Shown here: piece by piece, positions 4,379-61,738 of the stretch
Numbering within the stretch: position 1 is the first letter of the stretch
Layout: every line of letters begins with the position of its first letter
Origin: a phage
Strand: one strand, 5' to 3'
DNA length: 64,000 nt
Sequence record: PZ496580.1
Position numbers and translations under genes: made by a program
The notes under the pieces: generated by a model
Seen by the model: only the letters and a program-made list of their open reading frames with translations
Told to the model about the DNA's origin: nothing
Database searches by the model: none

Positions 4379-4399
4379 TACCCCTATCCCATCAGTATC

Positions 4400-5342: not shown

Positions 5343-6316
5343 TATACGAACTCCAATTCAACCATTAATTGCATTAACAAAAAGACAATGTGAATCTCTT
5401 TATCAGCCGCGTGCGCAAACATCTGATTATTTTCACCGATAATCTCGGTCAGACGGATAATCGACGCTGGCTTAACTTGAGTATACAACTCATTATAAAG
5501 TTTCTTGACAAATTGAGCGTATGTATTGGTATGGCGTGGTGCGAGTTTACGCACATTAGCAAACTGTTTAGTTTTAAGTGCTTCCACCACATCGGTTACT
5601 TCGGTATTGCTACTTTCGATAACCATGCTCAATACGCCAGCATCAATTTTACCATGTTTAGCGTAGCGGTCCAAAAGTTTCATTACGCGTCGGAAGTCTG
5701 GAAAGTTCTGCTTAACCAGTTCCGCTAATACGCGCATTTCTTCTACTGGCACACCTTCTTTATCAAGAATTGCTTTACACCGGACGATCATTTCTTTCAT
5801 CATGCGAAGCTGGTCATCTTTAGTCGGAGATCCAAACGTGATGGGGTCAAATCGAGACCGCAACGCTGGGATAATACCTTCTAGATCATTTGCTGTAATG
5901 ATGAATGTCACATTGTTTGAGTATGCCTCAGAGAAACTACGCAAGTGTCTTTGAGCATCAGCAAGCCCCGCTCGGTCATACTCATCGATAATAACAACTT
6001 TGCCTTTTTCTCGTTTTTCTTCATCAAGTGATACACTCTGCGCAAAGCGTGTAATCTCATCGCGGATAAAATCAATCTTACAATCTGCGCCGTTAACGAA
6101 CAGATAATCAACACCCACATCTTCGCAAAGCGCCTTAGCAACGGTTGTTTTACCAGTACCCGGCGATGGGCTATGCAGAATCATTGAAGGGATTCGGCCT
6201 TGCTTAACAATCTGCGCGAAGATCTTTTTATCTGCTTCCGGCAGAATACATTCAGAAATTGATTTCGGACGGTATTTCTGTTCCCACTGAAACTCATTTT
6301 CATTAACACTCAGCAT
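5342..6316 (-). CDS. 44: clamp loader large subunit gp44 (AAA+ ATPase)
   Basis: Walker A SPSPGTGKTTVAKAL, DEYDR Walker B, EQKYRP N-terminus as in T4 gp44; start taken at internal Met. Confidence 0.92.
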   Translation of the reverse strand: MLSVNENEFQWEQKYRPKSISECILPEADKKIFAQIVKQGRIPSMILHSPSPGTGKTTVAKALCEDVGVDYLFVNGADCKIDFIRDEITRFAQSVSLDEEKREKGKVVIIDEYDRAGLADAQRHLRSFSEAYSNNVTFIITANDLEGIIPALRSRFDPITFGSPTKDDQLRMMKEMIVRCKAILDKEGVPVEEMRVLAELVKQNFPDFRRVMKLLDRYAKHGKIDAGVLSMVIESSNTEVTDVVEALKTKQFANVRKLAPRHTNTYAQFVKKLYNELYTQVKPASIIRLTEIIGENNQMFAHAADKEIHIVFLLMQLMVELEFV

Positions 6317-6381
6317 ATAATCACCTCTCACAAATTACATCATTAAAATGGGGAGTATTTACACTCCCCGCAAATATTATA

Positions 6382-7068
6382 TTAGTCGGTGTAGCTGGAG
6401 TCAAGGTCACACGCGATCATATAAGATACGGTTTCACTTGCCAGCCATACAGCCTTACGGCGAGTGAAGCTCAGTTTGTAATCGCCGAAGTCAGTAGCAA
6501 CCAGTTTCATGTTATCTTTACGAATAAAGAAATGGAAGTCGGCGGTTCCGGCATATTCGCCCATGTCAAGACAAAACATCTCATTCGGATTATTTTTGTC
6601 AATCTCTTCCCAGCCTTTGATCATAAGACGACCATCAATCGGAAGAAATTCAAGGCGGTCCACTTTAAGCTGATTGCTCATTTTCATAAGCTGTTTCAGA
6701 TCGTCGTTGCTCAGTTCGTAATCTACATCGCTTGCAGGTGGAGTAACTCGGCCTTTCGGTGATACGATAGCAGCAGCACTAGCACCAGGATAATTAATTT
6801 TCAGACGATCGTTAGACACACGAATGTTACCAGTGCGGTTATCAACCGTAATATCTGCTTCATCACCTACCAGATTCAGAATACCCAGGAAAGAGTTAAG
6901 ATCATAGATCCCAATTTCGTGTTCCAGTTCTTGATTCAGAGTCGCTTCACCATATACAACGTTTGTCATGTTTTTGGTGATCAGGACGTTTCCTTTTTTC
7001 AGGATGATACCTGGGTTAATAGCGGAAAAGTTTTTCAGGGTAGCAATGGTTTCTTTAGTAAGTTTCAT
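6382..7068 (-). CDS. 45: sliding clamp gp45
   Basis: 228 aa; recalled T4 gp45 similarity (LKNFSAINPGIILK, IYDLNSFLGIL); synteny 44-45. Confidence 0.9.
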   Translation of the reverse strand: MKLTKETIATLKNFSAINPGIILKKGNVLITKNMTNVVYGEATLNQELEHEIGIYDLNSFLGILNLVGDEADITVDNRTGNIRVSNDRLKINYPGASAAAIVSPKGRVTPPASDVDYELSNDDLKQLMKMSNQLKVDRLEFLPIDGRLMIKGWEEIDKNNPNEMFCLDMGEYAGTADFHFFIRKDNMKLVATDFGDYKLSFTRRKAVWLASETVSYMIACDLDSSYTD

Positions 7069-10899: not shown

Positions 10900-11159
10900 A
10901 GTACAGACTCCATAGATCCACGCGCAATAACATTCTGGGTGATATCAGCAATCTTACGGGATACGATGTTTGTTAGCCCTTCTTTGGTGATATTTTCACG
11001 ATCAAATGGGATTTCGTCATGAGTCCACAAACCATAGTTAGATCGAAATGATAGCATATACTGACCATCTCGCACAACCTCAAATACATGGATCTTAGTG
11101 AATTTCGATAAACCTTCGTTGATTTCTTTCAGTGCATTAGTAATCATAACAACCTCCAA
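10896..11159 (-). CDS. hypothetical protein
   Basis: 87-aa ORF directly downstream of gene 47. Confidence 0.45.
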   Translation of the reverse strand: MEVVMITNALKEINEGLSKFTKIHVFEVVRDGQYMLSFRSNYGLWTHDEIPFDRENITKEGLTNIVSRKIADITQNVIARGSMESVL

Positions 11160-11200
11160 TCAATTTTAGAGAGTATAACGGGGATTTCTCCCCGCGTCAA

Positions 11201-12226
11201 CTAACTTTTTGCGCTATTTACTTCGGCTAAAAGTTCATCAGAAATACGCTTGACCGCCGCAAGTTCTTCCGGTTCTAGGTTTTGTTCTTCCAGATATTCA
11301 TAGACCATCTGAATAGTGCTTTTAACTTCAATAACACCTGTTTCCTGTGATGCGCTACTCTCCAGTTTATGGACCACTTTTAGCTTGTGTACAACGGCCT
11401 CTAACGCGCTTTCTAACTTAGTTAACCCATTATCAGCGACCGTTGCGATAAGACGCACACTAAGCCCCTTAAAGCGTTCTACATCGATTTTATCATCTGA
11501 CGGGTAAGTGATACGCACATGATAAGTTTTGTCATTCTGAATAAACTCTTTTTTGTGTGTATCGGTATCGAATACCCAAAAACCACGCGGATCGTTTTCG
11601 TCACCCGCCGTTAGTGTGTATGGTGTACCGATATACGTTACGTTACCCCCATCACTAATAGTATGAAAATGACCAGAAAACACTTCACGGTATTTCTTGA
11701 GGAAGTCCGCGCTATAACCTTCGGATTTTAGCCCTTTATAGAAATAGTAACCGGACAATTCCCAATGGCCTACACAATATTCGCTGAATGAGTTTTGAAT
11801 AAACTCTAAAATCTCTGATTTATTGTCATCACAAAACCACGGGAACAGATCAAATGATACACCATCAAAGGTAACTGTTTCTGGTTTATCAATAACCTTA
11901 ATACAATCATACTGGCTTAACACTTCACGCGGTGCGTTAGGCTGGATCTTGTTTCGTTTAAACATATCATGATTCCCGACCGTGATATAACAAGTAATAC
12001 CAGCCTCTTCCAGTAGCGGGATGATTTTCGTTCTATTAAAACGCATAGTTGCATGTGTGATTGCTTTTCGGCAATCAAACCAGTCCCCTGTCTGAATCCA
12101 TGCCTTAATATTATGTTTTTTTGAATAATCGACTGCCTTTTTAATAGTATCAAGAATATACTCATGTATCCACGGATCATCGTTGCCGATACCAGTATGC
12201 AGATCACCCAAAAGCAAAATTTTCAT
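11201..12226 (-). CDS. 47: recombination endonuclease subunit gp47 (SbcD/Mre11-like phosphoesterase)
   Basis: MKILLLGDLHTG and GNHD metallophosphatase motifs; colinear with T4 gp47. Confidence 0.9.
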   Translation of the reverse strand: MKILLLGDLHTGIGNDDPWIHEYILDTIKKAVDYSKKHNIKAWIQTGDWFDCRKAITHATMRFNRTKIIPLLEEAGITCYITVGNHDMFKRNKIQPNAPREVLSQYDCIKVIDKPETVTFDGVSFDLFPWFCDDNKSEILEFIQNSFSEYCVGHWELSGYYFYKGLKSEGYSADFLKKYREVFSGHFHTISDGGNVTYIGTPYTLTAGDENDPRGFWVFDTDTHKKEFIQNDKTYHVRITYPSDDKIDVERFKGLSVRLIATVADNGLTKLESALEAVVHKLKVVHKLESSASQETGVIEVKSTIQMVYEYLEEQNLEPEELAAVKRISDELLAEVNSAKS

Positions 12227-19008: not shown

Positions 19009-19219
19009 TTACCCCAAACTCGTTTACAATCTGCGCTTTATAGTATCCACCGCGAGATGCTAATAGATAAGCCGGGCTTAGGTATTCGTATTCACGGATT
19101 TCTACTTGTGCGTTTTCAGTTTCCCAAATCAGTAAAGTCCACATATTTGATTCTCCTGTAAAGTTGTATCTCGTCTTGATGAATATAGTATAGGGGATCT
19201 CTCGATCCCCGTCAAGCAT
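18992..19219 (-). CDS. hypothetical protein
   Basis: 75-aa ORF. Confidence 0.45.
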   Translation of the reverse strand: MLDGDREIPYTIFIKTRYNFTGESNMWTLLIWETENAQVEIREYEYLSPAYLLASRGGYYKAQIVNEFGVIEYEF

Positions 19220-19549
19220 TTATTTTAAATTTTTTCGAATGTATTCAGACCATTCCTTCCCTGTCAGTTCGGTCCCATTCTGGAAACTGAAATATTCATA
19301 CGGCATAGAGTCAAGATAAAACAGGATCATACATCGCGCCATATAATACCAATCACGATTAAAGTAAACTACGTTATCACCAGTACCATCAGCACCTTTA
19401 TCATAACCATCGCGGGTACGGGCGACCCATTGAATAGTATCATTTTTCTCACGGATAGTAACAGGTTCCCAATATCCAGCACCATCCAGCATGACCACAC
19501 GAACAAGTAAGGAAATATTGGCCTTTTGATTTGTTGTCATCCCATTCAC
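19220..19549 (-). CDS. hypothetical protein (overlaps upstream ORF by ~100 nt; possible frameshifted single gene)
   Basis: 109-aa ORF; track start codon is not ATG (first ATG a few codons in). Confidence 0.4.
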   Translation of the reverse strand: MNGMTTNQKANISLLVRVVMLDGAGYWEPVTIREKNDTIQWVARTRDGYDKGADGTGDNVVYFNRDWYYMARCMILFYLDSMPYEYFSFQNGTELTGKEWSEYIRKNLK

Positions 19550-19769: not shown

Positions 19770-20311
19770 AGGTCGCGATATAGTACATTATGAAAATGAG
19801 AACTTGCATTACCAATATTGTAGATAATAAATTCTTCATCCGGCGCTTGCGCTACAAATTGAGTATGAGCAACCGCTACAACCTTAAAAATACGATCCGT
19901 GATCTTGTGTTTAATTTCTGTTCCTACTTCCATAGGAACATATTCATGTGTTTCTGTTTCAGTCGCAAAACAGCCATCTTCTTCATAAGCACGAACAAAT
20001 CGATCGCAATCAGTACGCTTAACAAATTCAAGAGTATATAATTCTCGTGAATTGTCGGTATAAACCAACACAGAATTATTCTGATAGCGAATCACATACA
20101 GGTTATTATCATCGTCAATTACGCAAAAGCTACGGATTTGTGTTCCTTCGCCTTTACTCCAGCAGATATTAACCACCGTTCCTCTAATAAAAAAACTTTC
20201 CTTTAAATTAAAACTAGCCAATGTGCTAGCGTGCATTTTAACAACAACACCATCGCCAATTTCCAGTTTACGAAGTTTAACTTCTTTGCTCAGCACACAA
20301 AACATCATCAT
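19766..20311 (-). CDS. hypothetical protein
   Basis: 181-aa ORF downstream of a promoter cassette. Confidence 0.55.
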   Translation of the reverse strand: MMMFCVLSKEVKLRKLEIGDGVVVKMHASTLASFNLKESFFIRGTVVNICWSKGEGTQIRSFCVIDDDNNLYVIRYQNNSVLVYTDNSRELYTLEFVKRTDCDRFVRAYEEDGCFATETETHEYVPMEVGTEIKHKITDRIFKVVAVAHTQFVAQAPDEEFIIYNIGNASSHFHNVLYRDL

Positions 20312-20340
20312 GTTGTCCTCTCGTTGTTTTCGATGTGAGC

Positions 20341-20369
20341 ATTATACATTAGCTAATCAGGTTGTCAAC
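20341..20369 (-). promoter_or_regulatory. early sigma70-type promoter (TTGACA-17-TATAAT)
   Basis: minus strand TTGACAacctgattagctaatgTATAATgctcacatcgaaaacaacgagagg. Confidence 0.6.
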
Positions 20370-20373
20370 ACCT

Positions 20374-20406
20374 AAAAACGAAAAAGCCGACCCTTTCGGA
20401 TCGGCT
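20374..20406 (-). terminator. intrinsic terminator after nrdD
   Basis: minus strand agccgatccGAAAgggtcggc followed by tttttcgttttt. Confidence 0.7.
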
Positions 20407-22319: not shown

Positions 22320-22814
22320 TTATTTTACCAGTTCTGCTAATTCTTTTTCTTTAGCTTCTAGTTCAGCTTTAAGCTGTTTAATCTCTTGTCGCTTCTTATT
22401 AGCGGCTTCTTGCTTACTATTTCGGATAACCTGATCTAGATACAACTCCCAATCCTGAATATTTTTGATAATGTAACCGTCAACATTAATTGGTCGGAGA
22501 TTCAGTACAGCTTCCAGTTTAGTTGCAAAAACTTTAATTGCTGGGGTGAAGTATTCATATTCGTTATCTTCAAACCAATAACCTAGACTTGCATTATCAA
22601 TACGAAGACGAAGTTCAAGATCAAGGTCTTTATCTTCGGTGTATAGGTCTTTTACACCCCCCATCGAACCAACAACAACTTTAAAACGAATTTTATCAAC
22701 ACCACCAAACACATCAGTAAGGATACCAGCAATTGAGCTATTAGCGCAAGATTGGTCGCTGAATGCGTCAAGGTTTTCTTTAGTTACAGTATACCAAACA
22801 TCTTGTTTCCACAT
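22320..22814 (-). CDS. paralog-family protein (member B1), C-terminal coiled coil
   Basis: WKQDVWYTVTKENLDAFS module resembling the A-group; KQLKAELEAKEKELAELVK tail. Confidence 0.55.
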   Translation of the reverse strand: MWKQDVWYTVTKENLDAFSDQSCANSSIAGILTDVFGGVDKIRFKVVVGSMGGVKDLYTEDKDLDLELRLRIDNASLGYWFEDNEYEYFTPAIKVFATKLEAVLNLRPINVDGYIIKNIQDWELYLDQVIRNSKQEAANKKRQEIKQLKAELEAKEKELAELVK

Positions 22815-22844
22815 AATATAATCCTCTCGTTGTTAAGTGGGAGT

Positions 22845-22872
22845 ATTATAGCATACTCCCTTTGCATGTCAA
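22845..22872 (-). promoter_or_regulatory. early promoter (TTGACA-16-TATAAT) with -10 inside GGGAGTAT/ATACTCCC inverted repeat
   Basis: minus strand TTGACAtgcaaagggagtatgcTATAATactccc. Confidence 0.55.
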
Positions 22873-24047
22873 GCACGAACTTTTTTCTTTACTGCTTTCA
22901 CCTTCTGGCGAATTGCTCGAATCTCTTCGATCTCTTTTTCAGTCTCTTTAACAATTTCTTTGCGATTCTGAATATCTGTATCGAGATTATCATCAAGTTT
23001 AGGCAGCATGTCAATCAAGAACTTTTTAAAGTCTTTCAGGTTTCGGATAACAGCACCTTCACCCATTACCGCCACCCCTACACCATCCGGTAGATCACCA
23101 AACAGTTTAACCAGTTCAGACAGATGATCATGATCTTCTAGTGCTTCTTCCGGTTCAGATGGTAGTTCAACAAAGTAATAGCGTTCATCATTGCTGATCA
23201 GGTGATACCAGCAAAGCCCAAAAGATTTAGGAGTATATTCTACACCATCAACTTCAACCGCGTCAACACTTCCGAAAGAATCTACTTTAGTTACCTTAAA
23301 TCCGTGTTCCAGCTTTTGAACAATTTCAATAACATGACTGGATACGGTTTCAGTGTTAAACCAATGAGGCAAATTATGTGGATTTGGTTTGTAGCGTTCG
23401 CCCACTTTAAATCTCTGACCACGCTCTTGCATACGGACATATTCAACTCGCGTTATTTCCGCGAAGTATTCAAATTCGCTACCGTCAAACACACAAGCCC
23501 ATTGATCACAAAAACGATCCGCCTTAACAGTTTCACCTTTCGCGGTGATCATGGTAGCCGATCCGTGAAATTCTTCTTCAACTAAAAAGCCATATTCGAC
23601 AAAATCAACAAGTTTCATGGCTTCTTTGTGCTCTGGATCATGCTCTCCCCAGAATCGCTTAAATTCTTGCAAACCTTCCGGGGTAAACGAATAACATTTA
23701 CCTTTTTCAAAGTAAGTCGGCATTGCATCCTCTTTCTTGTTCATCGCTTCGTATGTCTCTTTTGAGATACGTTTAAAGTATTTGCGCTCATTGTGCATAA
23801 TCATAGTAGCCCAATAATCCACAATATCATTAGCGGAATAAACTACATCTCCAGCTTCAATAGTAATAACATGACCGTGGTCATCTTTTTCTAATACTTT
23901 AAAGCCCTTTTCTACGATTTCAGCAACCCGAATATGACCACGGCGCGAAGCATCAGTCAGAATAATTGAATAGCGAGAAAAGTCTAGAAACTCATCTTTA
24001 CCGCCTTCACGGAATGCATAGTAATGCCCTTCAAAGAATTTAGCCAT
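22869..24047 (-). CDS. paralog-family protein (member B2, several tandem copies of the module)
   Basis: 392 aa; repeated Y.F...GFKVL...G.V..IE..G..Y...ERKYFKRISK units. Confidence 0.6.
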   Translation of the reverse strand: MAKFFEGHYYAFREGGKDEFLDFSRYSIILTDASRRGHIRVAEIVEKGFKVLEKDDHGHVITIEAGDVVYSANDIVDYWATMIMHNERKYFKRISKETYEAMNKKEDAMPTYFEKGKCYSFTPEGLQEFKRFWGEHDPEHKEAMKLVDFVEYGFLVEEEFHGSATMITAKGETVKADRFCDQWACVFDGSEFEYFAEITRVEYVRMQERGQRFKVGERYKPNPHNLPHWFNTETVSSHVIEIVQKLEHGFKVTKVDSFGSVDAVEVDGVEYTPKSFGLCWYHLISNDERYYFVELPSEPEEALEDHDHLSELVKLFGDLPDGVGVAVMGEGAVIRNLKDFKKFLIDMLPKLDDNLDTDIQNRKEIVKETEKEIEEIRAIRQKVKAVKKKVRA

Positions 24048-24078
24048 AATATAATCCTCTCGTTGTTTAGATGGGAGT

Positions 24079-24107
24079 ATCTTACTACTCCCGTTTCATC
24101 ATGTCAA
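24079..24107 (-). promoter_or_regulatory. early promoter (TTGACA-17-TAAGAT) with -10 inside GGGAGTA/TACTCCC inverted repeat
   Basis: minus strand TTGACAtgatgaaacgggagtagTAAGATactccc. Confidence 0.5.
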
Positions 24108-24670
24108 GCGTTAAATGACTTTTGGATCTCTTTCAGTTCAGCTACTTTATCGGCGCTATACTTTGCTTGATGTTCCATGCGCTTAAGCTCACCTTTGATA
24201 TAGGTTTCTAGCTTAGGTTTATTCTCAATCAGAAAATCTTTCAAGTCATCGGCATTTTTAAAGTATAGCTGATTATCAAAGCTAAAATCTTCCAGCGTCA
24301 ATGATACCAAAGAAGACTTCGCAAACAAGTTAATCAGATCTTCCAGAGATTCTTCTTTCTTAACTGGTTTCATTTCTTCAAACTGCTTTTTAGTGATGCG
24401 TTTAAAGTATTTGCGCTCGCTTGCATCAATCAGAATCGATGCACCCTCATAATCATGAGTTTCTACCAAATACACATTACCCATAACATTAACGGTCAGA
24501 ACTTTAAAGCCATTGCGAAGCACATCATGCAGGAATTTGTTATGTTGCGGGTATAGTTTAACAAATTCAACAGCAGCATTAGCACTACGGAAAGTGTAGT
24601 AACGGCCTCTTTCAAAAACAGCATCATTGGAAGATTTAGCCGGATATACTTTGTATGTTTTCTGCACCAT
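24104..24670 (-). CDS. paralog-family protein (member B3)
   Basis: ATG at 24670 after GAGGATTATATT; contains GFKVLTV and SERKYFKRITKK. Confidence 0.6.
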   Translation of the reverse strand: MVQKTYKVYPAKSSNDAVFERGRYYTFRSANAAVEFVKLYPQHNKFLHDVLRNGFKVLTVNVMGNVYLVETHDYEGASILIDASERKYFKRITKKQFEEMKPVKKEESLEDLINLFAKSSLVSLTLEDFSFDNQLYFKNADDLKDFLIENKPKLETYIKGELKRMEHQAKYSADKVAELKEIQKSFNA

Positions 24671-24684: not shown

Positions 24685-24957
24685 TCATTTCACTAATTGA
24701 ACAGCACGGAACAGAATGCGATCACATGGAAGTAGCATAAAGTTCCAGCTCGGATCAAAGTCTTTAGCGGTGTAGGGTTTCCCATCAACAGAGATTTCAC
24801 TTACATAACCAATGGGCGACACTTTAAGAACAGTAAATCCATTCTTGATGACTTCGTAGGTATCTTTCAGACCTTCGTAGTCGTCCTCTAAGAAGTCTTT
24901 ACGTGCTTGCTCAGATTTAAAAACATAGGCCACACCAGCTTTAAACATCTTACGCAT
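24685..24957 (-). CDS. paralog-family protein (member B4, single module)
   Basis: AGVAYVFKSEQARKDF ... GFTVLKV ... ISVDGKPYT. Confidence 0.55.
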   Translation of the reverse strand: MRKMFKAGVAYVFKSEQARKDFLEDDYEGLKDTYEVIKNGFTVLKVSPIGYVSEISVDGKPYTAKDFDPSWNFMLLPCDRILFRAVQLVK

Positions 24958-24988
24958 TGTTGATTCTCCTTCTTGATTAGATGGGAGT

Positions 24989-25018
24989 ATTTTACTACTC
25001 CCATTTCATGTTGTCAAC
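24989..25018 (-). promoter_or_regulatory. early promoter (TTGACA ... TAAAAT) with -10 inside GGGAGTA/TACTCCC inverted repeat
   Basis: minus strand TTGACAacatgaaatgggagtagTAAAATactccc. Confidence 0.5.
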
Positions 25019-25023
25019 TACTA

Positions 25024-25497
25024 CTATCTTAATTTTTGTATGAATTGTTTCTTATACTTCTTCGTGATTTCTTCTCGTGTATCAGCGTCGCAGTAATCGA
25101 AACCTTCTGCGTCCATAATAGCAACCATCTCCGCGCGTGTCAAGCGTGAAAATCGTTTTACTTTATCAACAGCATATTGAGGATGTAAATGATTGTTGGT
25201 GTAGTCTCCTTTGATGTAATTAACATAGTTTGTAGCCCAAACAACGAAATCAGCACCTAAAGCACCAACCCCAAACCGCTTAAAGTCTCCGGTCAGCGAT
25301 CCTTCTAGGCGGTTGCAACACGAATGAAGCAATCCCCTTACGCGGCCTTGCCCTTTCCCATCTAGATCGTGATCATGGTCAAGATGGTTTTTGCTCATAT
25401 CCTCAAAAAGTGGCAATTGACAAAGGGGGCAAATGCCCCCCTGTTTTTCGAATAGTTCTTGTTTGTACTCTTTAGCACTCTTAGCAGTCAGTAACAT
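25024..25497 (-). CDS. 49: endonuclease VII (Holliday junction resolvase) gp49
   Basis: Colinear with T4 endo VII: CPLCQ, NHLDHDHDLDG, VRGLL, CNRLEG zinc site. Confidence 0.9.
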   Translation of the reverse strand: MLLTAKSAKEYKQELFEKQGGICPLCQLPLFEDMSKNHLDHDHDLDGKGQGRVRGLLHSCCNRLEGSLTGDFKRFGVGALGADFVVWATNYVNYIKGDYTNNHLHPQYAVDKVKRFSRLTRAEMVAIMDAEGFDYCDADTREEITKKYKKQFIQKLR

Positions 25498-27873: not shown

Positions 27874-28182
27874 TTATTTCACGTTAACGCCGTCATCAAT
27901 CCAGCCGACGCTATTTGGTTTAACAGTTTTACCATAGGATGCATACTTAATCAAGCATGGTTTAACATCATTATCAAATCTTCCTAAACGTACTCCAAAA
28001 TCAGGAATATCCATGTATGCGGCTTTATATCCCCATGTACCGTATTCAGAATCAATCTCAACCGGACGGCCTTTAAAAGCATACACGACACCGTGACGGT
28101 CAACGATAACATAGCAATAGCCAGCCGGAAGATACACAGTTTCGCCGTAAACTTTAACTGGAGTAGCAGAAGAGATAAACAT
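27874..28182 (-). CDS. hypothetical protein
   Basis: 102-aa ORF; ATG after GAGGATTATATT cassette. Confidence 0.55.
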   Translation of the reverse strand: MFISSATPVKVYGETVYLPAGYCYVIVDRHGVVYAFKGRPVEIDSEYGTWGYKAAYMDIPDFGVRLGRFDNDVKPCLIKYASYGKTVKPNSVGWIDDGVNVK

Positions 28183-28216
28183 AATATAATCCTCACATCG
28201 TTCATTTGATGCGGTT

Positions 28217-28245
28217 ATTATATGATAACCGCATTTTCATGTCAA
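28217..28245 (-). promoter_or_regulatory. early promoter (TTGACA-17-TATAAT) with -10 inside GCGGTTAT/ATAACCGC inverted repeat
   Basis: minus strand aaaaacTGTTGACAtgaaaatgcggttatcaTATAATaaccgc. Confidence 0.6.
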
Positions 28246-28251
28246 CAGTTT

Positions 28252-28626
28252 TTAAAAATCTTCTTCCGGTTTATATCGACCGTCGTCTTCTTGTTTTGGA
28301 GTAAATCCTTTATGCGTGCGCGGCTTCGCTTCCGGTTTACCAGCAATCATCAAACCAAAACATTTCAGCCCTTTATAACACATAACAATATTAACCACGG
28401 TCCACGTTATAGGCCATATAATAGAACAAATGGCATATGCTCCAGTATCGACCTCTTTGGTGTCCTTGTCGAATCTAGCATACAAGCAAATTATAAGATA
28501 GGTGATCATTGCACCAGTAGGCCAGATATAAAGTACATTAACAATATCTTGTGACGTCACGTTATCCTCCTTACATGTCTTGCAGTGCATAAAAGCATTT
28601 TTCTTCATAGTCATAGAAAATGTCAA
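28252..28626 (-). CDS. hypothetical membrane protein
   Basis: 124-aa ORF with two hydrophobic segments. Confidence 0.5.
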   Translation of the reverse strand: MTFSMTMKKNAFMHCKTCKEDNVTSQDIVNVLYIWPTGAMITYLIICLYARFDKDTKEVDTGAYAICSIIWPITWTVVNIVMCYKGLKCFGLMIAGKPEAKPRTHKGFTPKQEDDGRYKPEEDF

Positions 28627-28849
28627 AGTATGCTTTTTCTACATACTCGCCATTGATCCAAGCGGCAGTAACAATCAGAGTGGTCCAGTTAGATCCGCTC
28701 TCAACCGTAAAGGTTTTAATACCCAGCTTCGCTGCTAAGTCGAACGCAAACCGGACGCAACCACGGCAGGAAGTGATATTGGAAGTTTTGATTTTGATGC
28801 CACCGCGAGTTTTAGAAATTTCTACTTTAGCGAAAGACAGGTTGCTCAT
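28571..28849 (-). CDS. hypothetical protein
   Basis: 92-aa ORF; ATG after AGGAGAATCAAA cassette. Confidence 0.55.
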   Translation of the reverse strand: MSNLSFAKVEISKTRGGIKIKTSNITSCRGCVRFAFDLAAKLGIKTFTVESGSNWTTLIVTAAWINGEYVEKAYFDIFYDYEEKCFYALQDM

Positions 28850-28891
28850 TTTGATTCTCCTTAAGAAAGTGTGTTTCGTTTTGATGTGTTT

Positions 28892-28920
28892 AGTATAGGG
28901 GATACGTGATCCCCTGTCAA
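28892..28920 (-). promoter_or_regulatory. early promoter (TTGACA-17-TATACT) with AGGGGAT/ATCCCCT inverted repeat in spacer
   Basis: minus strand TTGACAggggatcacgtatccccTATACTaaacacatcaaaacgaaacacac. Confidence 0.5.
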
Positions 28921-28936
28921 CAACTTTTTTATGATT

Positions 28937-30891: not shown

Positions 30892-31153
30892 TACATGCTT
30901 TTAATGCATCAGTCGCGGTGTCATAGCGAGTATTATCATAGCACCAGTAACCATCTGTCAACTGATAAATCAATCCGTCCCTTTTAGCTTCGATGAAAGA
31001 TAACTCTTTGAAAGTTTCTACTTTCTTTGCTGATACTCCACGGTCACGGCGCTTATAGAGTTTAGCTAAAATGCGTTCAGCTTGTTCCTCTTTATCACCA
31101 GACAGATCCCAAATAATGTTGCGGATATGTTTGATTAATTGTTCAGTGGTCAT
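30863..31153 (-). CDS. hypothetical protein
   Basis: 96-aa ORF; ATG after AGGAGAATCAAAG cassette. Confidence 0.55.
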   Translation of the reverse strand: MTTEQLIKHIRNIIWDLSGDKEEQAERILAKLYKRRDRGVSAKKVETFKELSFIEAKRDGLIYQLTDGYWCYDNTRYDTATDALKACNDHLRKTTI

Positions 31154-31182
31154 CTTTGATTCTCCTTAGTTGGTATGTGTGC

Positions 31183-31210
31183 ATTATAGCATTGTGATTA
31201 TCTTTGTCAA
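31183..31210 (-). promoter_or_regulatory. early promoter (TTGACA-16-TATAAT)
   Basis: minus strand TTGACAaagataatcacaatgcTATAATgcacacatacc. Confidence 0.6.
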
Positions 31211-31214
31211 CACC

Positions 31215-31247
31215 CAAAAACAAAAAGGCTACCCCGAAGGATAGCCC
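31215..31247 (-). terminator. intrinsic terminator after glycine-rich protein gene
   Basis: minus strand gggctatccTTCGgggtagcc followed by tttttgttttt. Confidence 0.7.
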
Positions 31248-32093: not shown

Positions 32094-32315
32094 TTAGATG
32101 ACCTCTGCTTCACCATTCAGGAAGAAAGACCATGTTTTGTTAGGATAGCGAAGCGCCCATGATTCAGCAGTTTTAACACCAGCTTCGAACAATTGACGGC
32201 TGGTCACTTTAGCCATGCCATCTTCGATGGCAACGTTTTCAATAATCATTGGGTACTTAGCGCCACGCATGAAACCGAAGCCAGCGGAAGATTTGATAAT
32301 TTTAACAGTTGCCAT
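32094..32315 (-). CDS. KIEIID-family-like small protein (paralog 3)
   Basis: MATVKIIKSSAGFGFMRGAKYPMIIEN; start at internal Met after AGGAGAATCAAA (upstream part of the track ORF is the promoter leader). Confidence 0.5.
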   Translation of the reverse strand: MATVKIIKSSAGFGFMRGAKYPMIIENVAIEDGMAKVTSRQLFEAGVKTAESWALRYPNKTWSFFLNGEAEVI

Positions 32316-32356
32316 TTTGATTCTCCTAGAAAGTGTATCTCGTTTCGATGTGTGTA

Positions 32357-32385
32357 TTATGCAATAACACCGGAACGCTGTCAAC
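32357..32385 (-). promoter_or_regulatory. early promoter (TTGACA-17-CATAAT) with conserved leader
   Basis: minus strand TTGACAgcgttccggtgttattgCATAATacacacatcgaaacgagatacac. Confidence 0.55.
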
Positions 32386-32402
32386 ACTTTCTAAGAAAAA
32401 TT

Positions 32403-33369: not shown

Positions 33370-33568
33370 TCTTCACGGTCTCCATAATTGTTTTGTAAGC
33401 CAGTTTAAGATGATCACCGAAAAACTTTGCAGTGTTACCCTTCGGATCGCGGAGCATGGTTTCTACGATCTCATCGGCAGTAACAATTTCTCCTTTCTTT
33501 GCTGCATGTTCTACCATATACTTCAAAGTTTCTTCGGAAGCAAGTGCTGCGGCTACTGGATTAATCAT
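33359..33568 (-). CDS. hypothetical protein
   Basis: 69-aa ORF; ATG after AGGAGAATCAAA cassette. Confidence 0.5.
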   Translation of the reverse strand: MINPVAAALASEETLKYMVEHAAKKGEIVTADEIVETMLRDPKGNTAKFFGDHLKLAYKTIMETVKNAK

Positions 33569-33597
33569 TTTGATTCTCCTTTGTTGTCGATGTGTGC

Positions 33598-33626
33598 ATT
33601 ATGCTATACCCTATTCCGGTTGTCAA
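33598..33626 (-). promoter_or_regulatory. early promoter (TTGACA-17-CATAAT) with conserved leader
   Basis: minus strand TTGACAaccggaatagggtatagCATAATgcacacatcgacaacaaaggagaatcaaaATG. Confidence 0.6.
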
Positions 33627-33631
33627 CACCT

Positions 33632-33663
33632 AAAAACGAAAAAGCCACCCTTTCGGATGGCTT
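33632..33663 (-). terminator. intrinsic terminator after 715-aa gene
   Basis: minus strand agccatccGAAAgggtggct followed by ttttcgttttt. Confidence 0.7.
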
Positions 33664-33674
33664 TTGATTATATT

Positions 33675-45178: not shown

Positions 45179-45505
45179 TTAGAAAGAAACCGTTTTCAAG
45201 AAATCCAGATTTTCAGTACCGAATACAGAAAAGTAGTGTTTTCCTTTTTCGGTTTTAGAGAAAGCGATTGTCTTCTCTACATGGTGACGGAAGCCAGACA
45301 GACGATCACCCAGGTCAAGGCGGCAAGCGTAAGTAGTGCCGTTTTCGAAAGTAACCTCGATTTGAGTTTTGTCATATTCGCTTTCATAGGCTTTTGCTGC
45401 CGCGTCCTGTGCTTTACGCTCGAAGTCTTCGAAGTGGAATACTTCGTTTGCGTTAGCGAATACAGAAGATTCAGAGAAGATAACTTTAACAGATACTGGT
45501 TTCAT
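45179..45505 (-). CDS. hypothetical protein
   Basis: start at internal Met 45505 after AGGAGTATCAAA; upstream part of the track ORF is promoter leader. Confidence 0.55.
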   Translation of the reverse strand: MKPVSVKVIFSESSVFANANEVFHFEDFERKAQDAAAKAYESEYDKTQIEVTFENGTTYACRLDLGDRLSGFRHHVEKTIAFSKTEKGKHYFSVFGTENLDFLKTVSF

Positions 45506-45541
45506 TTTGATACTCCTTAGTGTGTTTCGTTTCGATGGGTG

Positions 45542-45570
45542 TATTATGCTATACACCCTCTCGTATGTCA
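45542..45570 (-). promoter_or_regulatory. early promoter (TTGACA-17-CATAAT) with conserved leader
   Basis: minus strand TTGACAtacgagagggtgtatagCATAATacacccatcgaaacgaaacacac. Confidence 0.6.
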
Positions 45571-45578
45571 ACAACTTT

Positions 45579-45779
45579 TTAGTCTTTTTTCAAAATTTTT
45601 AAGGCAGTATCTACCGCACCTTTCCAACCCTCCCACATAATGGACATAGCCAAATAGTTAAAAGTAGAATTTGGGCTTGGATTGAATTTGTTATCAATAA
45701 ACCATTCAACAAATCCTTCGCTCATGCCGTGGTCTTTAGCCGATTCTCGAACTAATACAAGTTGCTCTTTAATATCCAT
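45579..45779 (-). CDS. hypothetical protein
   Basis: 66-aa ORF. Confidence 0.45.
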   Translation of the reverse strand: MDIKEQLVLVRESAKDHGMSEGFVEWFIDNKFNPSPNSTFNYLAMSIMWEGWKGAVDTALKILKKD

Positions 45780-45986: not shown

Positions 45987-46208
45987 TCACAGTTGATCAG
46001 CGATGTAAGCGTGACAAGCGCGGAGTTTCATTAATGCACTACCTTTCACTTCGCCTACGATGTTCATAACTTCTAAGCGATCAGATGGATTCATTTTAGA
46101 GCACCAGATCTGGTTAGCCAATTCCAGTTTGCTCATATTTGGTTCCATCTCAAACAGTTCGCGCTCAAAGTCGATAATTTCTTTTGCTGCGTCTTTAAAG
46201 TTAATCAT
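45987..46208 (-). CDS. hypothetical protein
   Basis: 73-aa ORF. Confidence 0.5.
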   Translation of the reverse strand: MINFKDAAKEIIDFERELFEMEPNMSKLELANQIWCSKMNPSDRLEVMNIVGEVKGSALMKLRACHAYIADQL

Positions 46209-46237
46209 TTTGGTCCTCCCGTTTCGTTGATGGTTGT

Positions 46238-46266
46238 ATTGTAGGGGAGTTATCCTCCCCTGTCAA
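46238..46266 (-). promoter_or_regulatory. early promoter (TTGACA-17-TACAAT) with AGGGGAG/CTCCCCT inverted repeat in spacer
   Basis: minus strand TTGACAggggaggataactccccTACAATacaacc. Confidence 0.5.
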
Positions 46267-46274
46267 CACTTTTA

Positions 46275-46460
46275 TCAGAAATATGCAATATAGTTTGCCA
46301 GTCCTACAGAGTCATCATTCGGCATTGCTTTTACTGCCAGTTCAAACCCTGCTTCAACTTTCTGTTTAGCGGATTCTTCGTTATAACCCCAGATAACCAG
46401 AATAGCTACTACGTTTTCTTTGCTTACTGCTTTCAGTGCTTTAGTGATGCGACGTGCCAT
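46275..46460 (-). CDS. hypothetical protein
   Basis: 61-aa ORF; ATG after GGAGAATCAAATT. Confidence 0.5.
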   Translation of the reverse strand: MARRITKALKAVSKENVVAILVIWGYNEESAKQKVEAGFELAVKAMPNDDSVGLANYIAYF

Positions 46461-46506
46461 AATTTGATTCTCCGTTTAAGAAAGTGTGTTTCGTTTCGAT
46501 GGGTGT

Positions 46507-46535
46507 ATTATGCTATAGGCCGGATCTGGTGTCAA
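46507..46535 (-). promoter_or_regulatory. early promoter (TTGACA-17-CATAAT) with conserved leader
   Basis: minus strand TTGACAccagatccggcctatagCATAATacacccatcgaaacgaaacacac. Confidence 0.6.
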
Positions 46536-46559
46536 CAACTTTTTTAAAAAATTTAGGCA

Positions 46560-46586
46560 ATAAAAAAGCCACTCCGAAGAGTGGCT
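46560..46586 (-). terminator. intrinsic terminator
   Basis: minus strand gccactcTTCGgagtggc followed by ttttttatt. Confidence 0.7.
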
Positions 46587-46590
46587 TATA

Positions 46591-47857: not shown

Positions 47858-48016
47858 TTATTTGCTAATCGCTAAACCTAATCCGAAGAGAGCACCCGAC
47901 GCTACAGTATACCCGAAAGTTTCAAAGGCAGTAAAGATATCTAAGCCACCAGCTAACAGAGTTGCAGTAAACAGAGTACCAGCTACGAACATAAAAGTTT
48001 TACCGATAAATTTCAT
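47858..48016 (-). CDS. small membrane protein (52 aa, not in ORF track)
   Basis: hand translation MKFIGKTFMFVAGTLFTATLLAGGLDIFTAFETFGYTVASGALFGLGLAISK; ATG after AGGAGAATCAAA. Confidence 0.45.
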   Translation of the reverse strand: MKFIGKTFMFVAGTLFTATLLAGGLDIFTAFETFGYTVASGALFGLGLAISK

Positions 48017-48047
48017 TTTGATTCTCCTTTCGTTTGTTTGTGGGGGT

Positions 48048-48076
48048 ATCTTACTACCCCCGTTTCATGTTGTCAA
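48048..48076 (-). promoter_or_regulatory. early promoter (TTGACA-17-TAAGAT) with GGGGGTA/TACCCCC inverted repeat
   Basis: minus strand TTGACAacatgaaacgggggtagTAAGATaccccc. Confidence 0.5.
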
Positions 48077-48082
48077 CTGTTT

Positions 48083-48460
48083 TTAAGAATATTTTACTTC
48101 GTCTACAATGTCTTTCATGACATTGATTTCCATTCCGGTCAGAACACGTTGGAACATGTGCTGAACATACGCTTTCAGGTATTCATTTGACGGCTTGCTA
48201 TCAAAAGTCTTTTTAGTGTAGTAGTCATCACCGAACGCTACTGTAATTACATTTTCGTCGTCATTCCAAGCGATATAAGCAAATTTGCCGTTATCCCAGA
48301 AGCGAGCACTAATTGCTACTTTTGTTGAATCGAATCCTACTTCGCTGTGAGATTCAAGAACTACTTGCGTGCCAGTTTCTTTATGAATGTAGTAGCGGGA
48401 TACTAAGTCAAAGTTACGGGTGTAGTGACATTCGAATTTATCTTTAAACATCATCATCAT
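48083..48460 (-). CDS. hypothetical protein
   Basis: start at ATG run (MMMM) at 48460 after AGGAGAATCAAA; upstream part of the track ORF is promoter leader. Confidence 0.55.
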   Translation of the reverse strand: MMMMFKDKFECHYTRNFDLVSRYYIHKETGTQVVLESHSEVGFDSTKVAISARFWDNGKFAYIAWNDDENVITVAFGDDYYTKKTFDSKPSNEYLKAYVQHMFQRVLTGMEINVMKDIVDEVKYS

Positions 48461-48497
48461 TTTGATTCTCCTAAGTGTGTTTCGTTTCGATGTGTGC

Positions 48498-48526
48498 ATT
48501 ATGCTATAGTCGTTTATGGTTGTCAA
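48498..48526 (-). promoter_or_regulatory. early promoter (TTGACA-17-CATAAT) with conserved leader
   Basis: minus strand TTGACAaccataaacgactatagCATAATgcacacatcgaaacgaaacacac. Confidence 0.6.
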
Positions 48527-48530
48527 CACA

Positions 48531-48564
48531 TAAAAACAAAAAAACCCCGAAAAATTTTCGGGGT
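48531..48564 (-). terminator. intrinsic terminator after 57B-like gene
   Basis: minus strand ccccgaaaatttttcgggg followed by tttttttgttttt. Confidence 0.7.
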
Positions 48565-61629: not shown

Positions 61630-61642
61630 GTGTATGATTTAA

Positions 61643-61670
61643 AAGCCAATTCGAGAGAGTTGGCTTTTTC
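61643..61670 (+). terminator. intrinsic terminator after gene 8
   Basis: aagccaa-ttcgagagag-ttggctt then ttttt. Confidence 0.55.
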
Positions 61671-61681
61671 CATTTTGGGGG

Positions 61682-61709
61682 TTGACAATCTTGTCTGATA
61701 AGGTATAAT
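61682..61709 (+). promoter_or_regulatory. sigma70-type early promoter (TTGACA-16-TATAAT) inside the late baseplate cluster
   Basis: gggggTTGACAatcttgtctgataaggTATAATgctcacatctaaacaacggaggataaattATG. Confidence 0.6.
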
Positions 61710-61738
61710 GCTCACATCTAAACAACGGAGGATAAATT

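Follow-up and report, generated by a model that had tools for sequence, protein, structure and literature searches.

Repeated promoter and stem-loop cassettes of a Krischvirus coliphage are very probably PeSLs of the RB49/phi1 type

The repeated intergenic cassettes found in a 64-kb stretch of phage DNA (hereafter the window, meaning the whole stretch analysed) are very probably (we put the probability at about 0.93) PeSLs (promoter-early stem-loops), a kind of regulatory cassette that recurs between the genes of RB49/phi1-type phages. About 21 of them were counted in the window, which belongs to an RB49/phi1-type T4-like coliphage of the genus Krischvirus (98% identical to phage Brandy and 95-96% identical to RB49 and phi1; 59 of 59 matching records are Krischvirus-type coliphages). 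As PeSLs have already been described, and partly tested, in the RB49/phi1 group, the cassettes are a rediscovery. In fact, PeSLs were first published in 2010, and at least one RefSeq record, that of GEC-3S, already carries an annotation of this very element, its focal ortholog being given as a terminator and a promoter with -35 and -10 signals. The small additions reported below (a one-stem-per-cassette rule, cassette conservation and a RegB-like module) are cheap, testable leads, not discoveries.

The claim of the initial annotation that a repeated terminator-promoter-leader-RBS module lies at the focal place was confirmed, far above chance. The focal module (33598-33665, minus strand) leads from a terminator hairpin and T-run through a promoter and a G-poor leader to AGGAGAATCAAAATG and a 69-aa ORFan, with the following parts:

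33640..33665, minus strand: intrinsic terminator hairpin AAAAGCCATCC-GAAA-GGGTGGCTTTT, beginning 10 nt past the stop codon of a 715-aa ORF
33598..33626, minus strand: sigma-70-type early promoter, with TTGACA at 33626-33621, a 17-nt spacer and CATAAT at 33603-33598
33566..33597, minus strand: leader GCACACATCGACAACAA, poor in G and rich in A and C, then the SD/spacer module AGGAGAATCAAA and the ATG

At its upstream end the cassette is bounded by the stop codon of the 715-aa ORF (33677-33675, minus strand). The hairpin folds at -16.6 kcal/mol (z -4.76; 0/200 shuffles) and is directly followed on its 3' side by the T-run TTTTTCGTTTTT, which reaches 33632. The promoter, TTGACA-N17-CATAAT, matches the consensus at 11 of 12 positions and would start transcription near A33591-A33593; judged by its sequence, the focal copy is probably active. 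The ATG at 33568 opens the 69-aa ORFan (33359-33568, minus strand), a homologue of ORF084. Searches of Pfam and PHROG placed this ORF in a PHROG family of unknown function and gave no more than a weak Ig/Hoc-like match for the 715-aa ORF.

Across the window, TTGACA-N17-CATAAT with at most one mismatch has 9 matches versus 0.61 expected, and the 23-nt leader with at most three mismatches has 5 versus 0 expected. In an independent repeat search, the highest-ranking direct-repeat families (D1-D4, D6 and D7) were again the cassettes. Every coordinate listed by the initial annotation proved to hold a promoter-like site upstream of an SD, an ATG and an ORF; its term "near-identical" overstates the likeness of the copies, which are mosaic and 61-88% identical across 43-83 nt. 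Promoter consensus scores are 12/12 in five copies and mostly 10-11/12 in the remainder, and the 20 nt 5' of the -35 average 72% A+T (vs 60% for the window), typically as AAAAAGTTG or as the terminator T-run. In the alignment, the cassettes begin at the stop codon of the upstream gene and finish at the SD and start codon. Besides the focal copy they are as follows, those marked "added" being absent from the earlier list:

1575..1657, minus strand (added): TTGACA-N16-TATAAT, with a 12-bp stem-loop directly 3' of the -10; fold z -5.3; annotated early promoter in RB49
4315..4392, minus strand: gene 43 cassette, TTGACA-N17-TATAAT, with a composite stem ATAGGGG...CCCCTAT bracketing the -35 and spacer; fold -17.7 kcal/mol, z -4.3; RB49 ortholog annotated "hypothetical early promoter"
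6314..6412, minus strand (added): upstream of gene 44, TTGACT-N17-TATAAT, with hairpin GGGGAGTG-TAAA-TACTCCCC 3' of the -10
11145..11208, minus strand (added): TTGACG, spacer stem CGGGGA/TCCCCG, TATACT
19142..19223, minus strand (added): TTGACG, spacer stem GGGGATC/GATCCCC, TATACT, leader, AGGAGAATCAAATATG
20309..20406, minus strand: after nrdD, terminator AGCCGATCC GAAA GGGTCGGCT with T-run, TTGACA-N16-TATAAT, leader, SD; terminator and -35 half 88% identical to the focal cassette (repeat family D7)
22812..22880, minus strand: stem GGGAGTA/TACTCCC over the -10, TTGACA-N16-TATAAT, RBS module GAGAGGATTATATTATG
24045..24115, minus strand (cassette 24107): stem GGGAGTA/TACTCCC over the -10 (TAAGAT); stem broken in the ECD7 ortholog
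24955..25025, minus strand: 9-bp stem ATGGGAGTA/TACTCCCAT over the -10 (TAAAAT)
28180..28253, minus strand: 10-bp stem ATGCGGTTAT/ATAACCGCAT over TATAAT
28847..28928, minus strand: stem GGGGAT/ATCCCC in the -35/-10 spacer, then the long leader
31151..31247, minus strand (cassette 31210): after gene 38, UUCG-loop terminator, TTGACA-N16-TATAAT, leader, AGGAGAATCAAAGATG
32313..32392, minus strand (cassette 32384): exact TTGACA-N17-CATAAT, long leader; no significant stem-loop on folding (z +0.5)
40155..40225, minus strand: stem GGGGGTA/TACCCCC over the -10 (TAATAT)
45503..45579, minus strand (cassette 45571): TTGACA-N17-CATAAT, 8-bp stem GGGTGTAT/ATACACCC over the -10, then the long leader; without upstream terminator; fold z -6.3
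46206..46274, minus strand: stem GGGGAG/CTCCCC in the -35/-10 spacer (-10 is TACAAT)
46458..46587, minus strand: UUCG-loop terminator (46587-46566) 31 nt upstream of the promoter, TTGACA-N17-CATAAT, long leader, SD
48014..48084, minus strand: stem GGGGGTA/TACCCCC over the -10 (TAAGAT)
48458..48564, minus strand: terminator ACCCCGAAAATTTTTCGGGGT with T-run, TTGACA-N17-CATAAT, exact leader GCACACATCGAAACGAAACACAC
61641..61741, plus strand: between baseplate gene 8 and ORFan 140, GAGA-loop terminator, TTGACA-N16-TATAAT, leader, SD, ATG

The published PeSLs number about 52 motifs per genome, each combining a sigma-70 consensus promoter and AT-rich upstream tract with one stem-loop in any of five positions (most commonly between -35 and -10 or over the -10) and with an SD and start codon at the 3' end; most of them precede ORFans, and gene 43 and nrdD have flanking copies too (Arbiol et al. 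2010, PMC2839356). The genomic setting in the window is the same: ORFans follow most of the cassettes, one copy (4378) belongs to gene 43 and another (20368) comes after nrdD. All five published stem-loop positions are present. We see no essential difference from the RB49/phi1 PeSLs: the window is a further genome of the same genus and group, with orthologous positions, the TTGACA-N17-TATAAT core, the AT-rich tract and G-run/C-run stems. Cassettes stand at syntenic sites in phi1, RB49, JK32 and G2248, and the tested phi1 PeSLs 211/210, 206/205 and 193 have the -35 flank, leader and SD module in common with the window cassettes. In the GenBank record of RB49, the counterparts of 1649, 4378 and 6404 are annotated as early promoters, and the RB49 early-promoter consensus is reported, in the work of Desplats et al. 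as relayed by Nolan et al. (2006), to be consistent with transcript 5'-end mapping. In lacZ fusions, phi1 PeSL206/205 showed a promoter activity of ~13,000 Miller units, and the phi1 211/210 stem-loop cut expression about as much as rrnB T1 (PMC2839356). For sister copies the literature documents promoter activity, less read-through via the stem-loop and mini-circle formation (PMC2839356), and PeSLs have been reported both as promoter plus terminator and as recombination linkers (PMC2839356; Comeau et al. 2014, PMC4122927). The structural part of the initial annotation (intrinsic terminator, sigma-70-type early promoter, leader and RBS, with ORF calls running through the leader) agrees with this published work. 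The two PeSL papers (PMC2839356, PMC4122927) do not discuss that the leader is conserved, that the SD module resembles a RegB site or that the stem positions exclude one another.

Two other phage systems are comparable in part. T4 early promoters and the T-even IP-locus likewise have strong early promoters, an A-rich upstream element and small non-essential genes, but the T4 early consensus is GTTTAC...TATAAT rather than the TTGACA of the cassettes, and the T4 elements have weaker AT-rich stems and were termed analogues, not homologues (PMC2839356). Lambdoid morons also carry their own promoter and terminator; however, the control sequences of morons do not form conserved repeats, nor are they held responsible for moron mobility (PMC2839356).

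The stem-loop varies in its placement: it lies upstream of the promoter in 6 cassettes, over the -10 in 7, between -35 and -10 in 4, downstream in 2 and across the -35 in 1, and 1 cassette has none. Fold z-scores across the cassettes range from -2.7 to -6.3, and a hairpin of -9 kcal/mol or better occurs in 18 of 20 minus-strand cassettes versus 8% of random 119-nt windows (P ~5e-18). Six "upstream" copies, the focal one included, have the GC-rich hairpin and U-run past a stop codon that define an intrinsic terminator, with loops GAAA (two), UUCG (two), GAGA and one AU loop; the GAAA-type loop previously ascribed to the module thus holds for two copies only. Likewise, the upstream terminator is there in five of the seven minus-strand copies for which it had been proposed, the exceptions being 32384 and 45571, the latter with a stem over the -10 instead. 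A Rfam scan of the whole window gave 0 matches at the gathering threshold, the leader and hairpins corresponding to no catalogued RNA.

A second promoter class, with the -10 inside a palindrome, had also been proposed. This description stands for 22845, 24079, 24989, 28217, 40189 and 48048; at 28892 and 46238 the stem is in the spacer, and at 4350 it brackets the -35 and spacer. The split into two classes is too coarse: all cassettes belong to one family, whose members differ in which of five positions their single stem-loop takes. An internal palindrome together with an upstream terminator occurs in 0 of 21 cassettes (P = 5e-4), and this mutual exclusivity of stem-loop positions is a new observation of the present work. 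It argues that the palindrome replaces the terminator rather than regulating the promoter.

That the GC-rich palindromes at the -10 could be a dimeric-regulator site, as suggested initially, or more broadly operators for a dimeric dsDNA-binding protein of phage or host (a repressor or recombination factor), is very unlikely. Palindromes do lie over the -10 or spacer in 11 cassettes, their G-run/C-run arms recur with T21, C25 and C27 of the right arm invariant, and in E. coli a terminator palindrome has been shown to serve as a LexA site as well (2026 preprint). However, the arms differ (GGGAGTA, GGGGGTA, GGGTGTAT, GCGGTTAT, GGGGAT, GGGGAG, CGGGGA), loop length and sequence are variable, and the position of the palindrome relative to the promoter spans ~90 bp in five subclasses. 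Moreover, the arms covary: tabulated by a custom script in 3'-arm register (MAFFT had placed the gaps 5' instead of in the loop), the pairs show compensatory, double-sided Watson-Crick changes at three positions, and one-sided changes give G.U only. The two one-sided changes among orthologs are A to G, keeping a G.U in the sense RNA and leaving the other strand mismatched. This covariation led us to reject a single sequence-specific operator, and the absence of co-occurrence with upstream terminators is expected if both do the same job. A structure-dependent promoter effect, or a protein binding the GGGG...CCCC stem (on which Arbiol et al. 2010, PMC2839356, speculated), may still play a part on the evidence of these sequences.

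The internal stems that we examined have no U-run and so fall outside the intrinsic-terminator definition, their tails reading ATCTAAACAA, ACTTAACAAC and CAAATGAACG. Together with the location of the 3' arm in the discriminator, between -10 and +1, and with G.U-compatible substitutions suggestive of RNA-level structure, this leaves some room for regarding them as RNA processing or stability elements (3'-end protection after cleavage) or as promoter tuning through a GC-rich discriminator. We consider this rather unlikely. In the one experiment available, a "between" stem-loop that lacks a T-run, that of phi1 211/210, lowered downstream lacZ as much as rrnB T1 (PMC2839356). That these stems and canonical terminators exclude each other is in keeping with a common role in termination or attenuation, and weak terminators overlapping promoters are reportedly strengthened by polymerase at the coupled promoter. 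We therefore favour termination: by analogy, the U-run-less hairpins probably terminate, possibly aided by polymerase at the overlapping promoter. For the hairpins over the -10 this is an extrapolation, as the tested phi1 stem-loop is of the "between -35 and -10" subclass.

The analogy is with bacterial promoter-coupled terminators (Fletcher et al., bioRxiv 2026, 10.64898/2026.08.19.745784), in which, between tandem genes, one piece of DNA serves both as terminator and as the following promoter, and polymerase at the coupled promoter raises termination. Common to both is a hairpin-encoding sequence inside or beside the promoter; in the bacterial cases, however, the stem is over the -35 and a T-tract is in the spacer, whereas in the phage the stem is in the spacer or over the -10, with no T-tract. 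The bacterial pairs were defined by a mapped RNA 3' end at most 35 bp upstream of a mapped start on the same strand. The focal terminator, fully upstream with its 3' end estimated ~45 nt before the start, is outside this limit, and for the "between" and "-10-overlapping" cassettes the geometry suggests a 3' end less than ~10 nt from the transcription start.

The four functions that a cassette of ~70-130 bp would pack upstream of an early gene can be summarized as follows. A stable stem-loop would end or attenuate the transcript from the upstream gene, as a canonical intrinsic terminator with T-run in the focal copy and as a G-rich/C-rich hairpin within, over or just past the promoter in others. 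An A/T-rich tract and near-consensus sigma-70 promoter (TTGACA, 16-18 nt, T/CATAAT) would be used by unmodified host RNA polymerase directly after infection. A short, G-poor leader, predicted to be unstructured, and a strong Shine-Dalgarno and spacer module (AGGAGAATCAAAATG or GAGAGGATTATATTATG) would complete the unit, so that each small early gene becomes insulated and strongly expressed. In this respect the cassettes are a textbook-style case of a large lytic phage in which every accessory gene is equipped for strong early expression, insulated from its neighbours.

The ribosome-site module may have a further role. GGAGAATCAAA agrees with the RegB/S1 consensus GGAGRAYARAA in 10 of its 11 positions, the exception being a C at position 8; this match is new here. 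The pattern GGAGRAYMRAA has 10 matches versus 0.5 expected, nine being cassette SDs and one the SD of regB, which the phage encodes and whose own SD is GGAGAATAAAA. T4-type RegB/S1 sites (Durand et al. 2006, PMC1702504) similarly have GGAG in an early-gene SD followed by an A-rich stretch, but A is strongly preferred at position 8, where the cassette module has C; the RegB of the window phage is divergent and its specificity only partly known. GGAGAATCAAA could also be a RegB/S1 cleavage site that would shut cassette mRNAs off later. A pattern scan of IMG/VR for the promoter plus the GAGGATTATATTATG module returned 11 loci, few of them Krischvirus, a number that does not allow a large covariation analysis; on its own, the RBS module is also present in contigs of unrelated phages.

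We tentatively extend the PeSL reading to a more integrated unit, a possible though not the likelier case, in which promoter-coupled hairpin terminators are combined with an GGAGAATCAAA doubling as a RegB/S1 site. The efficiency of a U-run-less hairpin would here be set by RNA polymerase occupying the very strong overlapping promoter, which would explain why such hairpins do not co-occur with a canonical upstream terminator. If this is true, a gene acquiring a cassette would automatically be expressed early, be insulated from the adjacent gene and be shut off post-transcriptionally at a set time.

Likewise new here is that conservation of the cassettes equals or exceeds that of the genes beside them. 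They are ~97% identical to their orthologs, whereas the remainder of the window is 94-96% identical; divergence is 1.3% in the focal cassette versus 8.3% in its flanks, and the focal 103 nt are at least 99% identical in 40 of 59 genomes and 97-99% identical in phi1 and RB49. The element has 264 blastn places across the 59 genomes. This copy number, the mosaic copies and the excision as mini-circles described in the literature could point to a small mobile element (MITE-like or homing-associated) with an incidental promoter-like sequence, a reading we hold to be extremely improbable. Every copy is intergenic, co-oriented with transcription and ends exactly at the SD and start codon, copies are syntenic and stable in five genomes, homing endonuclease insertions of the region do not coincide with cassettes, and we saw no terminal inverted repeats, target duplications or associated transposase. 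A MITE-like or transposon origin was rejected on the grounds of this orientation and synteny and the lack of terminal inverted repeats and transposase.

As PeSLs, the ~100-bp cassettes are mutually similar and would therefore offer homology patches for recombination that inserts, deletes or swaps the intervening genes, the repeated control sequences doubling as linkers for gene swapping. For example, G2248 has a single PeSL in place of gene 38 with its terminator and promoter; one end of this difference is in the leader of cassette 31210, and the breakpoint lies between -10 and SD, as does the crossover of a sequenced mini-circle (Arbiol et al., PMC2839356). This is the only cassette-ended case among the ~9 large differences between the window and four relatives, so the shuffling role is weakly illustrated here; the others are homing-endonuclease insertions, paralogue slippage and an internal deletion of the 715-aa gene. 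The phi1 and RB49 deletions next to the focal cassette were considered as PeSL-to-PeSL recombination and rejected, both (33883-35730 and 33714-35730) being inside the 715-aa gene.

The leader bears on gene annotation. Previously taken as shared, it occurs in full (CGAAACGAAACACAC) in five copies only (28869, 32333, 45520, 46484 and 48475), the first of which had been put in the second class, and the leader of the first class (ACACCCATCG / GCACACATCG) shares homology with the 3' arm of the stem that overlaps the -10. A leader-derived N-terminal extension MHTSKRNTLRRIKM does arise at 48498, from the in-frame ATG within CATAATG (cassette 48458..48564), and comparable extensions are present at 32356 and 45543; the focal copy and most others lack one through the leader, and five more have different upstream in-frame starts. 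Start codons of the region thus belong at the SD-supported ATG, not at upstream in-frame codons in the promoter or leader.

A search with the 4 kb around the focal cassette (the minus-strand copy at about 33598-33665) matched 59 phage records. Every one of these is a T4-like coliphage of the RB49/phi1 type (genus Krischvirus); phage Brandy is the closest (98%), and RB49 and phi1 match at ~95%. The first 50 kb of the window align colinearly with phi1 and RB49 at 95-96% identity, and according to the annotation of these two phages the window lies between uvsX/gene 43 and baseplate gene 8-9. By the same annotation and by GC skew, the minus strand to ~52 kb carries early and replication genes, and the plus strand late genes. 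The focal copy itself is laid out as follows.

Features of the focal cassette, in the direction of transcription
33677-33675, minus strand, TAA stop codon of a 715-aa ORF
33665-33640, minus strand, hairpin AAAAGCCATCC-GAAA-GGGTGGCTTTT
directly after the hairpin, minus strand, T-run TTTTTCGTTTTT
33626-33621, minus strand, -35 box TTGACA
between TTGACA and CATAAT, minus strand, spacer of 17 nt
33603-33598, minus strand, -10 box CATAAT
between CATAAT and ATG, minus strand, GCACACATCGACAACAA followed by AGGAGAATCAAA
33359-33568, minus strand, 69-aa ORF starting with the ATG at 33568

The hairpin has a folding energy of -16.6 kcal/mol (z -4.8), and none of 200 shuffled sequences folded equally well. 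The 715-aa ORF (33675-35822, minus strand), which adjoins the cassette on its upstream side, has as its sole domain match a weak C-terminal similarity of the Ig-like/Hoc-like type.

The identity of these elements is settled by the literature: they are PeSLs (promoter-early stem-loop units), described from phi1 and RB49 with ~52 motifs per genome (Arbiol et al. 2010, PMC2839356). The hallmarks given there are a sigma-70 consensus promoter with an AT-rich upstream region, a 3' end formed by the Shine-Dalgarno sequence (SD) and start codon, and a stable, often polyG/polyC stem-loop in one of five positions, most commonly between the boxes or over the -10. PeSLs lie mainly upstream of ORFans, but also flank gene 43 and occur at nrdD. 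In the same study lacZ fusions revealed strong promoter activity, a stem-loop reduced the expression behind it by as much as rrnB T1 did, betaine relieved sequencing stops, and mini-circles arose from recombination between neighbouring PeSLs. The RB49/phi1 consensus, TTGACA-N17-TATAAT with G(n)-loop-C(n) stems, was restated by Comeau et al. 2014 (PMC4122927). The experimentally used phi1 PeSLs 211/210, 206/205 and 193 share with the window copies the AAAAAGTTGTTGACA flank, the spacer stems, the ACACACAT... leaders and the AGGAGAATCAAAATG module, and both phi1 and RB49 carry the window's cassettes at the same syntenic positions. Orthologs of the copies at 1649, 4378 and 6404 appear as "hypothetical early promoters" in the RB49 GenBank record, and in the GEC-3S RefSeq record the focal ortholog is annotated with terminator, promoter, -35 and -10, directly followed by the ORF084 homologue. 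The CATAAT form of the -10 is explained by the RB49 -12 position, which may be T or C (Nolan et al. 2006); according to the same authors, the predicted RB49 consensus agrees with the 5'-end mapping of Desplats et al. 2002, and RB49 lacks motA and the middle-promoter system. The whole phenomenon is already known: it has been described, partly tested and, in a sister genome, annotated for the exact focal site.

Within the window, 9 sites match TTGACA-N17-CATAAT with up to 1 mismatch, where 0.61 are expected, and 5 match the 23-nt leader with up to 3 mismatches, where 0 are expected. In a blind repeat search the cassettes came out as the main families of direct repeats (D1-D4, D6 and D7). The structural interpretation in the initial annotation was correct, and each position it listed has a promoter-like site with an SD, an ATG and an ORF behind it; further cassettes at 1649, 6404, 11200 and 19215 bring the total to ~21 per 64 kb. 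The module does recur, but it is not near-identical as first described, the copies being similar and mosaic (61-88% identity over 43-83 nt). An upstream terminator is present in five of the seven minus-strand copies listed as class 1 (upstream terminator, shared leader) and absent at 32384 and 45571; its loop may be GAAA, as proposed, yet also UUCG, GAGA or AU-rich. A copy of the cassette terminator also stands alone at 41427-41451 (minus strand; AAGCCAATCC GAAAA GGGTTGGCTT plus T-run, a D7 member), without a TTGACA promoter behind it.

Seventeen cassettes were aligned, each from its -35 flank through to the ATG. TTGAC is invariant among them, and conservation extends to positions 2 (A) and 6 (T) of the -10, to CA(T)C behind it, to the SD core (A)GGAG and to the start codon. 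The 20 nt preceding the -35 are 72% A+T (window, 60%), and the leaders are G-poor (0-15% G). The position of the stem-loop varies.

Position of the stem-loop in the cassettes
upstream, with T-run: 6 copies
overlapping the -10: 7 copies
in the spacer between -35 and -10: 4 copies
just downstream of the -10: 2 copies
spanning the -35: 1 copy
absent: 1 copy

Of 20 minus-strand cassettes, 18 have a simple hairpin with a folding energy of -9 kcal/mol or lower, compared with 8% of random 119-nt windows (binomial P ~5e-18). None of the 21 cassettes examined combines an upstream terminator with an internal stem; the probability of no overlap, given 6 upstream and 13 internal stems among 21 in a set that we delimited ourselves, is 5e-4. 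Class 2, proposed to have the -10 embedded between inverted repeats, is a mixture: the stem overlaps the -10 at 22845, 24079, 24989, 28217, 40189 and 48048 and lies in the spacer at 28892 and 46238, and at the gene 43 copy (4350) a composite stem brackets the -35 (z -4.3). Both classes are a single family. The 3' arm and tail of the -10-overlapping stems (TACTCCCATC, TACCCCCATCG) reappear as the start of the class-1 leader (ACACCCATCG / GCACACATCG), and copy 45571 combines a CATAAT-type promoter with an intact -10-overlapping stem. The in-frame extension MHTSKRNTLRRIKM attributed to translation of the leader is real at 48498, with akin cases at 32356 and 45543, but is missing from most copies, the focal one included; upstream in-frame starts of other kinds occur in five further copies.

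The palindromes around the -10 had been suggested to be sites for a dimeric regulator. We compared base pairs across the seven paralogous -10-overlapping stems and five distinct variants found among their orthologs in phi1, RB49, JK32 and G2248. All predicted pairs are standard; three pair positions changed on both sides (G-C/T-A; G-C/T-A/A-T; G-C/C-G), and the only two one-sided changes, both A-to-G, yield U.G. Loops are free to vary, spacer-class stems are conserved or extended, and the stem is broken in one ortholog, that of phage ECD7. The overall pattern agrees with selection for a sense-strand hairpin, i.e. in RNA arriving from upstream. A single protein recognizing a single palindrome is a misfit with covarying pairs, and the dimeric site is not favoured, as the arms covary and the one-sided changes keep U.G. 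A structure-specific binding protein may be compatible with the pair pattern; the GGGG...CCCC stem as a possible target of a DNA-binding protein was raised by Arbiol et al. 2010.

For the focal copy, the intrinsic terminator would stop the transcript of the 715-aa gene. UP elements lie just upstream of the -35, and the T-run would fill this zone. Host sigma-70 polymerase would then initiate ~7 nt past CATAAT, and the unstructured A/C-rich leader with its strong SD would direct translation of the 69-aa ORFan. In the internal-stem copies the hairpin can form only in RNA read through from upstream, and no U-run follows it. We argue that these stems, too, may stop or attenuate upstream transcription, because of the published reporter result on a spacer-type stem and because internal stems and canonical terminators strictly exclude each other. 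In bacterial "promoter-coupled terminators", polymerase at an overlapping promoter boosts the efficiency of a weak terminator, and 3' ends commonly lie ~10 bp before the next start site (Fletcher et al. 2026, bioRxiv preprint); by extension to phage, promoter-coupled termination is a plausible mechanism for the cassettes.

The focal 103 nt are present in 59 of 59 Krischvirus-type records (264 blastn places altogether; identity of 99% or more in 40 records), and blastn gave no match in other phage records. Compared with phi1, RB49, JK32 and G2248, cassette positions are ~97% identical and the rest of the window 94-96%; the focal cassette diverges by 1.3% versus 8.3% for the 300 nt on either side. 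Conservation of the non-coding cassettes therefore equals or exceeds that of the neighbouring genes.

In G2248 a single spacer-stem PeSL replaces the terminator - SD - gene 38 - terminator - promoter block (31178-32093, minus strand), and gene 38, the tail-fibre adhesin gene, is missing from the locus. Homology picks up again between the -10 and the SD, which is also where the sequenced mini-circle crossover lies (Arbiol et al. 2010). This one case appears in line with the published recombination model, and a linker role of the cassettes, lightly illustrated in the window, is plausible. The remaining large differences lack cassette boundaries.

Large differences without cassette boundaries
12228-12792, near 41400 and near 42590: homing-endonuclease genes
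gene 43 of JK32: endonuclease-carrying insertion
near 29750-29900: paralogue slippage
33883-35730: missing in phi1, internal deletion of the 715-aa gene (remnant annotated ORF084.1)
33714-35730: missing in RB49, internal deletion of the 715-aa gene

The two deletions have a common right end and distinct left ends; the ORF is intact in Brandy, JK32 and G2248. The homing-endonuclease-type gene at 12228-12792 (minus strand; RB49 ORF040, HNH/AP2) is present also in RB49 and JK32 and absent in phi1 and G2248. Further endonuclease insertions of JK32 adjoin 3115-3127 (gene 43), 41396-41414 and 42576-42600, the last in common with G2248. Two repeat families in coding DNA, D5 (a conserved 69-nt stretch four times, 291-544 bp apart, 17113-18493) and D8 (a tandem pair 216 bp apart, 81% identity, 29676-29968), probably represent small families of paralogous genes.

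The SD/spacer module seen most often, GGAGAATCAAA, agrees with the RegB/S1 target consensus GGAGRAYARAA (Durand et al. 2006, PMC1702504) at 10 of 11 positions and has C instead of the preferred A at position 8. The window holds 10 GGAGRAYMRAA sites (0.5 expected), nine of them cassette SDs and the tenth the SD of the phage's own regB (39817-39827, minus strand). The latter, GGAGAATAAAA, is the exact T4 RegB/S1 consensus; in RB49 and phi1 it is GGATAATAAAA, in agreement with the literature. As a side lead, the cassette SD modules may be candidate RegB cleavage sites; Arbiol et al. 2010 mention neither RegB nor the leader. A second ribosome-site module, GAGGATTATATTATG (D10), is repeated with or without a promoter (24658-24689, 29740-29771, 30840-30871; cassette ends 22812, 24045, 28180) and, in phage contigs of IMG/VR, also follows unrelated promoters. 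The hairpin GGGGAGUG-UAAA-UACUCCCC (6350-6369, minus strand) is located between genes 45 and 44 and follows a TTGACT-N17-TATAAT promoter; an RNA operator with a UAAA loop has been mentioned in a review for RB49 gp43, and this hairpin may be that operator.
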